A stretch of 64,000 nucleotides of DNA from Nitrospirota bacterium (GTDB lineage Bacteria; Nitrospirota; UBA9217): contig CAWIYV010000009.1 in NCBI GenBank assembly GCA_963840455.1, positions 96,001-160,000 of the forward strand, read 5' to 3'. Every line of letters begins with the position of its first letter. Within the stretch, counting starts at the first letter, position 1. The notes beneath the pieces are model-generated. The model saw only the letters and a list, made by a program, of their open reading frames with translations. It was not told where the DNA came from and did no database searches. Of this stretch, positions 17,268-17,407 are shown piece after piece. Made by a program: the position numbers and the translations under genes.

Positions 17268-17284
17268 GCTGCCGAACCGGCAAC
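17268..17284 (-). promoter_or_regulatory. Candidate bacterial SECIS hairpin
   Basis: mRNA GUUGCCG-GUU-CGGCAGC; G-initiated loop 25 nt and 16 nt after the two UGA codons. Confidence 0.6.
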
Positions 17285-17407
17285 TTAGCTCTTTCAGCCC
17301 TTTCACTTGTGACATGTCATCCCAGGATGATCTTTTGCAGACTTTTTGAGATTATCCCAGAAAGCAGCCTCTTTCGCGAGGGCTTTTGCCGACAATGTCT
17401 TCTTCAT
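17285..17407 (-). CDS. Putative selenocysteine-containing RiPP precursor peptide, 40 aa (not in ORF track)
   Basis: AAGGAGGTGA RBS; MKKTLSAKALAKEAAFWDNLKKSAKDHPGMTCHK(TGA)KG(TGA)KS-TAA; TGA codons at 17305-17303 and 17296-17294; directly upstream of the rSAM/SPASM gene. Confidence 0.78.

Follow-up and report, generated by a model that had tools for sequence, protein, structure and literature searches.

Bacterial SECIS elements normally overlap the coding sequence, so that RNA structure and protein sequence constrain one another. In the bacterial SECIS model, an upper stem of 4-16 bp bears a loop of 3-9 nt in which position 1 or 2 is a G with G or U after it; the minimum free energy is at most -7.5 kcal/mol and the spacing is 16-37 nt (PMC13188914). 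Several described systems depart from the usual layout or combine selenocysteine (Sec) in ways that are relevant here. According to the preprint by Haft and Gwadz (bioRxiv 10.1101/2022.07.06.499078), SaoC has its SECIS hairpin after the stop codon, with a GGU loop and a 7-bp stem. PMC3834832 describes engineered untranslated SECIS elements that work in Escherichia coli near the C-terminus, in thioredoxin reductase and in Sel-tags. The table of a 2026 review (PMC13188914) includes U-x-x-U double selenoproteins as well as UXX-star families. Finally, in the SbtA/SbtM thio(seleno)oxazole system (TIGR04081/TIGR04082), summarized in PMC9204691, SbtA is the only Sec peptide described to date whose maturase is a radical SAM (rSAM) enzyme. 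An initial annotation of the DNA analyzed here proposed that one untranslated SECIS recodes two UGA codons and called this arrangement unusual in bacteria. With untranslated SECIS elements (SaoC; the engineered constructs of PMC3834832) and U-x-x-U proteins (PMC13188914) on record, that description was overstated.

The locus lies on the minus strand of the window, by which we mean the whole stretch of 64,000 nucleotides that was analyzed, taken from a Nitrospirota genome (G000). It contains a mini-gene of 40 codons plus stop (17285..17407), translated as MKKTLSAKALAKEAAFWDNLKKSAKDHPGMTCHK-U-KG-U-KS, whose C-terminal end reads C-H-K-UGA-K-G-UGA-K-S-UAA. The first UGA (UGA1, 17303..17305, proposed Sec35) and the second (UGA2, 17294..17296, proposed Sec38), 9 nt after UGA1, are both in frame with this ORF, and the in-frame terminal codon UAA (17285..17287) is the true stop. 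The SECIS-type hairpin GUUGCCG-GUU-CGGCAGC (17 nt, 17268..17284) starts at the next base and lies wholly 3' of the stop codon. The initial annotation had reported AAG UGA AAG GGC UGA AAG AGC UAA followed by this hairpin, which was borne out on the minus strand; the 40-codon ORF was absent from it. We put the probability that the hairpin is a bacterial SECIS in the 3' UTR serving both UGAs at about 0.8. The sequence-level tests described below agree with the proposal of one untranslated SECIS for two UGAs (model, loop, covariation, spacing and machinery), and from them Sec insertion at the two codons is predicted.

Upstream of the mini-gene, a Shine-Dalgarno sequence AGGAGG (17417..17422, minus strand) is located 9 nt 5' of the ATG at 17407, and 91 of the 92 loci of the family described below have both a GGAGG-like site and a start codon, the exception being L077. 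An extended -10-like motif, TGcTATAAT (17457..17465, minus strand), lies approximately 45 nt 5' of the start codon and may represent the promoter. Motifs of the TGnTATnAT type occur at the same position in the upstream sequences of relatives; no -35 element is recognisable, and a consensus promoter scan was silent on the -10-like motif because of the lack of a -35 match. Contigs from the RNA libraries of three studies map to the mini-gene, spanning 17112-17407 at approximately 90% identity (X17) and 17297-17421 at 99% identity (X16). As contigs reveal neither the level nor the ends or strand of a transcript, and the libraries may contain DNA, they are a weak hint of transcription at most.

The hairpin can be read in two ways, with a 7-bp stem and a 3-nt GUU loop or with a 6-bp stem and a GGUUC loop. 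In the 7-bp reading the loop lies 25 nt from UGA1 and 16 nt from UGA2, the distances given in the initial annotation and correct for this stem; the 6-bp reading gives 24 and 15 nt. Folding of the hairpin alone yielded -8.9 kcal/mol, with 1 of 200 shuffles folding as well, and the 19-nt hairpin of a relative yielded -9.2 kcal/mol. Compared with the bacterial SECIS model, the energy of the window hairpin is below the limit, and its stem and loop are within range in either reading (7 bp and 3 nt, or 6 bp and 5 nt), as they are in all 80 distinct family sequences (6 bp, loop of 4-5 nt). The loop G required by the model is present in 80/80. The spacing falls within the model range for UGA1 (24-25 nt) and is borderline for UGA2 (15-16 nt in the window). 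No Rfam family was identified at gathering thresholds over the whole window, and a permissive scan of 17180-17420 returned one irrelevant weak match.

Conservation of the arrangement was examined in two sets of loci. The first was anchored on the rSAM protein encoded downstream of the mini-gene, which was searched in 41 genomes (G000 and 40 relatives) and revealed 13 orthologues at 52-84% identity; these loci were thus found without reference to the peptide. The mini-gene was present upstream of 12 of the 13 orthologues; in each case it had both UGAs and ended in the same six codons, and the hairpin came after the stop. In the remaining genome (G011, orthologue at 54% identity) no mini-gene was found nearby, and the C-terminal motif occurred nowhere in that genome. 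The second set came from a motif scan of one genome per species across 185,579 species, which returned 91 stretches. Eighty of these were examined, and 79 contained the same gene with both UGAs and the hairpin. One match, L035 in a Romboutsia record, was rejected as chance. Nearly all records from the scan were labelled as Nitrospirota, Nitrospirae or Thermodesulfovibrionia MAGs, with two labelled Deltaproteobacteria and one Deferribacteres. Conservation of the hairpin in UGA-containing homologues, the absence of which the initial annotation had named as grounds for abandoning its proposal, was therefore observed in 12/13 rSAM-anchored and 79/80 motif-scan loci. Locus L077 (CAVSHF010000003.1) looks like a decayed copy: its mini-ORF is interrupted by a stop and lacks a usable start, the rSAM gene is missing so that the YceI and oxidoreductase genes follow directly, and the two UGAs and a hairpin remain.

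The 92 loci were collapsed to 80 distinct 52-nt segments, which were used for the structure statistics. The six-pair helix was paired in 99.0% of cells, with changes on both sides in four of the six pairs (45 cells); the closing pair was C-G in 45 sequences and U-A in 35. The covariation score was 0.262 compared with 0.140 when shuffled, and none of 500 shuffles reached 0.262. When the 3' partners were slid as a control, pairing dropped to 15-67%. Covariation among homologous loci, one of the checks that had been suggested initially, was thus found, with compensatory changes accompanying near-complete pairing. The loop was nearly always GGUC(N), and comprised GGUC (35), GGUCA (23), GGUCC (10), GGUUC (4), GGUCU (3) and five others, all of which retain GG at loop position 1 or 2. 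In total 77 of the 80 loops start with GG (GGU in 76, GGGC in 1) and three with A-GG. The position of the hairpin was nearly fixed as well. The loop lies 25-26 nt from UGA1 and 16-17 nt from UGA2 in 75/80 sequences, and the base of the hairpin is 9 nt from UGA2 in the window and 10 nt in 59/80. The gap between stop and stem is 0-2 nt in 77/80 (0 nt in 2, including the window, 1 nt in 59 and 2 nt in 16), with gaps of 3, 4 and 7 nt found once each.

The six codons that follow UGA1 bear on whether the UGAs are translated. All six stay in frame in every locus. The 12 rSAM-anchored relatives displayed only third-position changes in these codons (AAG/AAA, GGC/GGT) together with changes of the stop codon. 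For the 79 motif-scan loci K-U-K-G-U-K-S was fixed by the search, so that synonymous-only variation was built in and is no proof; with the amino acids fixed by the motif, only the 12 rSAM-anchored loci provide an unbiased test of the frame. The terminal codon was TGA in 39, TAA in 38, TAG in 3 and TGG in none of the 80 distinct sequences, although the search pattern permitted TGG. The terminal codon thus behaves as a stop read in this frame. Where it is UGA (39/80), three UGAs are spaced 9 nt apart, and just 1-2 nt separate the third from the hairpin.

The host encodes the machinery for Sec incorporation. In G000, selB scored 383.5 bits (cut-off 242) and the adjoining selA 606.9 bits (cut-off 268). 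Two tRNA-Sec genes were identified at G000:C1:311722-311816 (66.5 bits) and G000:C9:389439-389529 (52.9 bits); ARAGORN confirmed both and gave TCA as their anticodon. Two genes encoding formate dehydrogenase alpha (FdhA) contain an in-frame TGA. The organism thus has selA, selB and selC. Among the 12 peptide-bearing relatives, SelB was above cut-off in 8, and SelB, tRNA-Sec or a UGA-containing FdhA gene was found in 11. Both selA and selB were absent from the assemblies of four peptide-bearing relatives (G007, G024, G012 and G022; 63-96% complete). One of these (G012) had tRNA-Sec and a UGA-containing FdhA gene, two (G007 and G024) had UGA-containing FdhA genes, and G022 (63% complete) gave no sign of Sec use. 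The selA and selB genes are adjacent in G000, and the region may therefore be systematically lost from the assemblies or bins of these four MAGs.

To compare the hairpin with SECIS elements of the same organism, G000 was scanned for in-frame TGAs followed by hairpins with a GGU loop, and the best candidates were checked against NCBIfam; distances run from the U of UGA to the base that opens the loop. FdhA (TIGR01591, 859 bits, above cut-off) has a GGUCU loop on a 7-bp stem at distance 21, a C-GCAxxG-C-C (seleno)protein (TIGR01909, 83.8 bits, above cut-off) a GGUCU loop at distance 39, and an ArsM-type selenoprotein (E 3.5e-88) a GGUCG loop at distance 20. Split-Soret-cytochrome-like and YedE-like candidates, with weaker family matches, have a GGUC loop at distance 23. 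G000 also contains L127 (G000:C14:432459-434387, plus strand), a 643-residue frame with many CxxCH haem motifs and one in-frame UGA followed by a GGUC-loop hairpin. No NCBIfam model matched this frame, which may be related to the multihaem selenoenzyme of PMC13510729 (2026).

Under the preferred reading, SelB with Sec-tRNA(Sec) would bind the hairpin (17284..17268) and deliver Sec at UGA1 and then, three codons later, at UGA2, yielding a product proposed to end in C-H-K-Sec-K-G-Sec-K-S. A second element would not fit into the 6 nt between the UGAs; provided that both codons are decoded, one hairpin would therefore serve both, with SelB reloaded within three codons. The codon adjoining the hairpin could not use it, and the terminal codon would act as a stop even when it is UGA, since the hairpin would at that point be inside the mRNA channel of the ribosome and unwound. 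On the scale used for the G000 elements, UGA1 lies 27 and UGA2 18 from the loop in the window (28 and 19 in most relatives), compared with a range of 20-39. UGA2 is thus just below this range, and in the window its spacing is shorter than that of any verified SECIS of G000; it would nevertheless be near the canonical distance, with UGA1 9 nt further out and within the range of the other selenoprotein genes of the genome.

These distances also bear on an alternative in which the hairpin is a SECIS that is efficient at UGA2 only. UGA1 would then act mostly as a stop, the 34-residue peptide would be the main product, and the di-Sec form would be minor or selenium-dependent. Measured from codon to stem, UGA2 is 9-11 nt away in the family compared with 11 nt in FdhA of G000, and UGA1 18-20 nt away, which favors this alternative. 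So does the UGA-SECIS distance in E. coli, which is reportedly strict (Heider et al. 1992); if that strictness applied, one hairpin serving codons 9 nt apart would need a more tolerant SelB or a lower efficiency at one site. However, UGA1 at 27 is well placed among the verified elements of the organism itself, and codons that are seldom translated would not be expected to keep their frame and a proper stop across 91 other loci. We consider this alternative unlikely.

A second alternative ends the ORF at UGA1 and takes the hairpin to be another RNA element, which could for example stabilise the mRNA from its 3' end, belong to a terminator or attenuator, or bind a protein. Its main attraction is the sequence that follows. 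Directly after the first hairpin, between the peptide gene and the rSAM gene, lies a second, long and much stronger hairpin with a U-rich tail (17198..17267, main stem 17262..17208, minus strand), which indicates that the region carries transcript-end or attenuation signals. The 101-nt stretch 17190-17290 had a folding energy of -40.5 kcal/mol (z -5.25), which none of 200 shuffles equalled, and several relatives likewise show GGCAG...CUGCC arms and T-rich tails. A scripted count found terminator-like second hairpins at 19/80 loci, although helix picking was crude and this number is unreliable. Leaky terminators or attenuators are common after RiPP precursor genes, and the second hairpin looks like one of these. 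The lack of a match to an Rfam SECIS model and the public gene calls, which end at 34 aa, also fit an ORF that stops at UGA1.

The first hairpin itself behaves differently. No U-tract follows it; GAAAAAGG comes next, and a search for terminator-like sites returned nothing at this position on the minus strand, so that the pattern of an intrinsic terminator (a GC-rich stem followed directly by a U-tract) was not found at this hairpin. Its loop is the SECIS loop of G000's own selenoprotein genes and its distance to the UGAs is fixed within 2 nt in 77/80 sequences. In addition, the stretch from UGA1 to the hairpin varies at third codon positions only, the terminal codon changes among stops only, and the host lineage uses Sec. 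Taken together, these data make a function apart from Sec insertion quite improbable, and argue for the reading of the hairpin as a SECIS for both UGAs.

The hairpin could also have fallen beside the UGAs by chance. G000 contains 584 comparable hairpins (stem of 6 bp or more, GGU at the start of the loop) in 8.06 million positions, and 4 of its 3820 TGA-N6-TGA sites had one at this distance compared with approximately 2.2 expected; within G000 alone, the arrangement is not beyond chance. It is nevertheless taken as real because 91 other loci retain it and show compensatory changes, and this conservation refutes a chance origin.

The mini-gene is part of a conserved gene neighborhood. The downstream gene (16095..17141, minus strand) encodes a 348-aa radical SAM/SPASM enzyme (Pfam Radical_SAM 75.6 bits, SPASM 46.4 bits) that scored below the cut-off of every NCBIfam model. 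An rSAM gene was found downstream on the same strand in 85/92 loci, and three of the seven exceptions have too little flanking sequence. Next comes a gene for a YceI-family protein (15537..16079, minus strand; NF002994, E 1.6e-34, below cut-off), which also follows the rSAM gene in a subset of the loci with enough flank. It is followed by a gene for an FAD-dependent pyridine nucleotide-disulfide oxidoreductase of the dihydrolipoyl dehydrogenase/MerA-like type (14139..15509, minus strand; NF004947, 491.9 bits, cut-off 592); in L018 and L077 this gene is preceded by YceI, and in L108 it immediately follows the rSAM gene. The neighboring rSAM/SPASM enzyme most likely acts as a maturase, with the peptide as its substrate. 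Apart from this set of genes, and further upstream beyond an LtrA-family gene, the minus strand carries a small Cys/His-rich ORF of 77 aa (19509-19742) and a 287-aa ORF (19776-20639).

The family comprises 80 distinct peptides, most commonly of 40 residues. Their N-terminal 34 residues vary freely around a conserved core, K-E-A-A-F/Y-W ... N-P-G ... C. No model for the peptide was found in NCBIfam release 20, even at E up to 10, or in Pfam, and a protein search with the 40-residue sequence returned only two entries, both public gene calls truncated at 34 aa, and no forms with Cys. Cys at the first Sec position, which would provide the classical Sec/Cys pairing, was found in 0/401 genomes of the phylum. 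A metagenome match (L135) was considered as a Cys form and rejected as chance, as it has no leader, start or hairpin. The literature search returned no description of the peptide or of the arrangement, and either may have been named in work outside that search; the selenopeptide family appears not to be in print.

A broader interpretation can be built on these results, and we regard it as an even bet. One untranslated SECIS would recode two UGAs that lie 9 nt from each other, and a third UGA, 9 nt further on in approximately half of the family, would terminate, with position relative to the hairpin alone deciding the fate of three identical codons whose local context is the same. The product would be an obligate di-Sec peptide, no Cys form having been found, that a dedicated rSAM/SPASM enzyme converts into a new selenium natural product or cofactor. 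It would represent a second Sec-RiPP family, unrelated to SbtA/SbtM.

The locus is of interest in several respects. Its signal is under no coding constraint, measures only 17 nt and closely resembles the E. coli element, and thus offers a clean natural system in which the reach of SelB, the reloading of one hairpin within three codons and the distinction between Sec-UGA and stop-UGA could be addressed. It also points to a conserved selenium peptide with its own rSAM enzyme that gene callers cut short at 34 residues and that is unnamed in current family libraries.

The E. coli SECIS stem has a bulged U, and the present stem has none. Both the E. coli fdhF-type SECIS and the present element are short hairpins with a GGUC loop, and the family consensus GUUGCC-GGUC-GGCAAC is identical to the E. 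coli minimal SECIS (17 nt), as printed in PMC3834832, at 13/16 positions. In contrast to the fdhF-type element, the present hairpin is wholly untranslated and is positioned for two UGAs 9 nt apart.

With SbtA/SbtM the locus shares a small putative Sec precursor beside an rSAM/SPASM enzyme, and one of the proposed Sec residues follows a Gly, a feature also of the SbtA motif. The peptide did not match TIGR04081, and the enzyme scored 132 bits against TIGR04082 (cut-off 350 bits), aligning only to model positions 199-516. The hosts differ as well, with SbtA/SbtM found in Geobacter and Desulfobacteria and the present family in Nitrospirota. The U-x-x-U and UXX-star families have in common with the predicted product two Sec with two residues between them, with the last Sec three from the C-terminus (U-K-S-stop). 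The present case is, however, a 40-residue peptide and not a domain protein, and only the bare U-x-x-U-x-x-stop pattern is shared; the peptide did not match NF041114, NF041115, NF041211 or TIGR02605 even at E up to 10.

The closest parallels for the position of the signal are SaoC and the Sel-tag constructs, which likewise have a hairpin behind the stop codon and Sec a few codons before the C-terminus. The compact C-terminal di-Sec module with its untranslated signal could serve as a natural counterpart of the engineered Sel-tags. The SaoC and Sel-tag cases involve one UGA, whereas here one hairpin would have to act twice within three codons.
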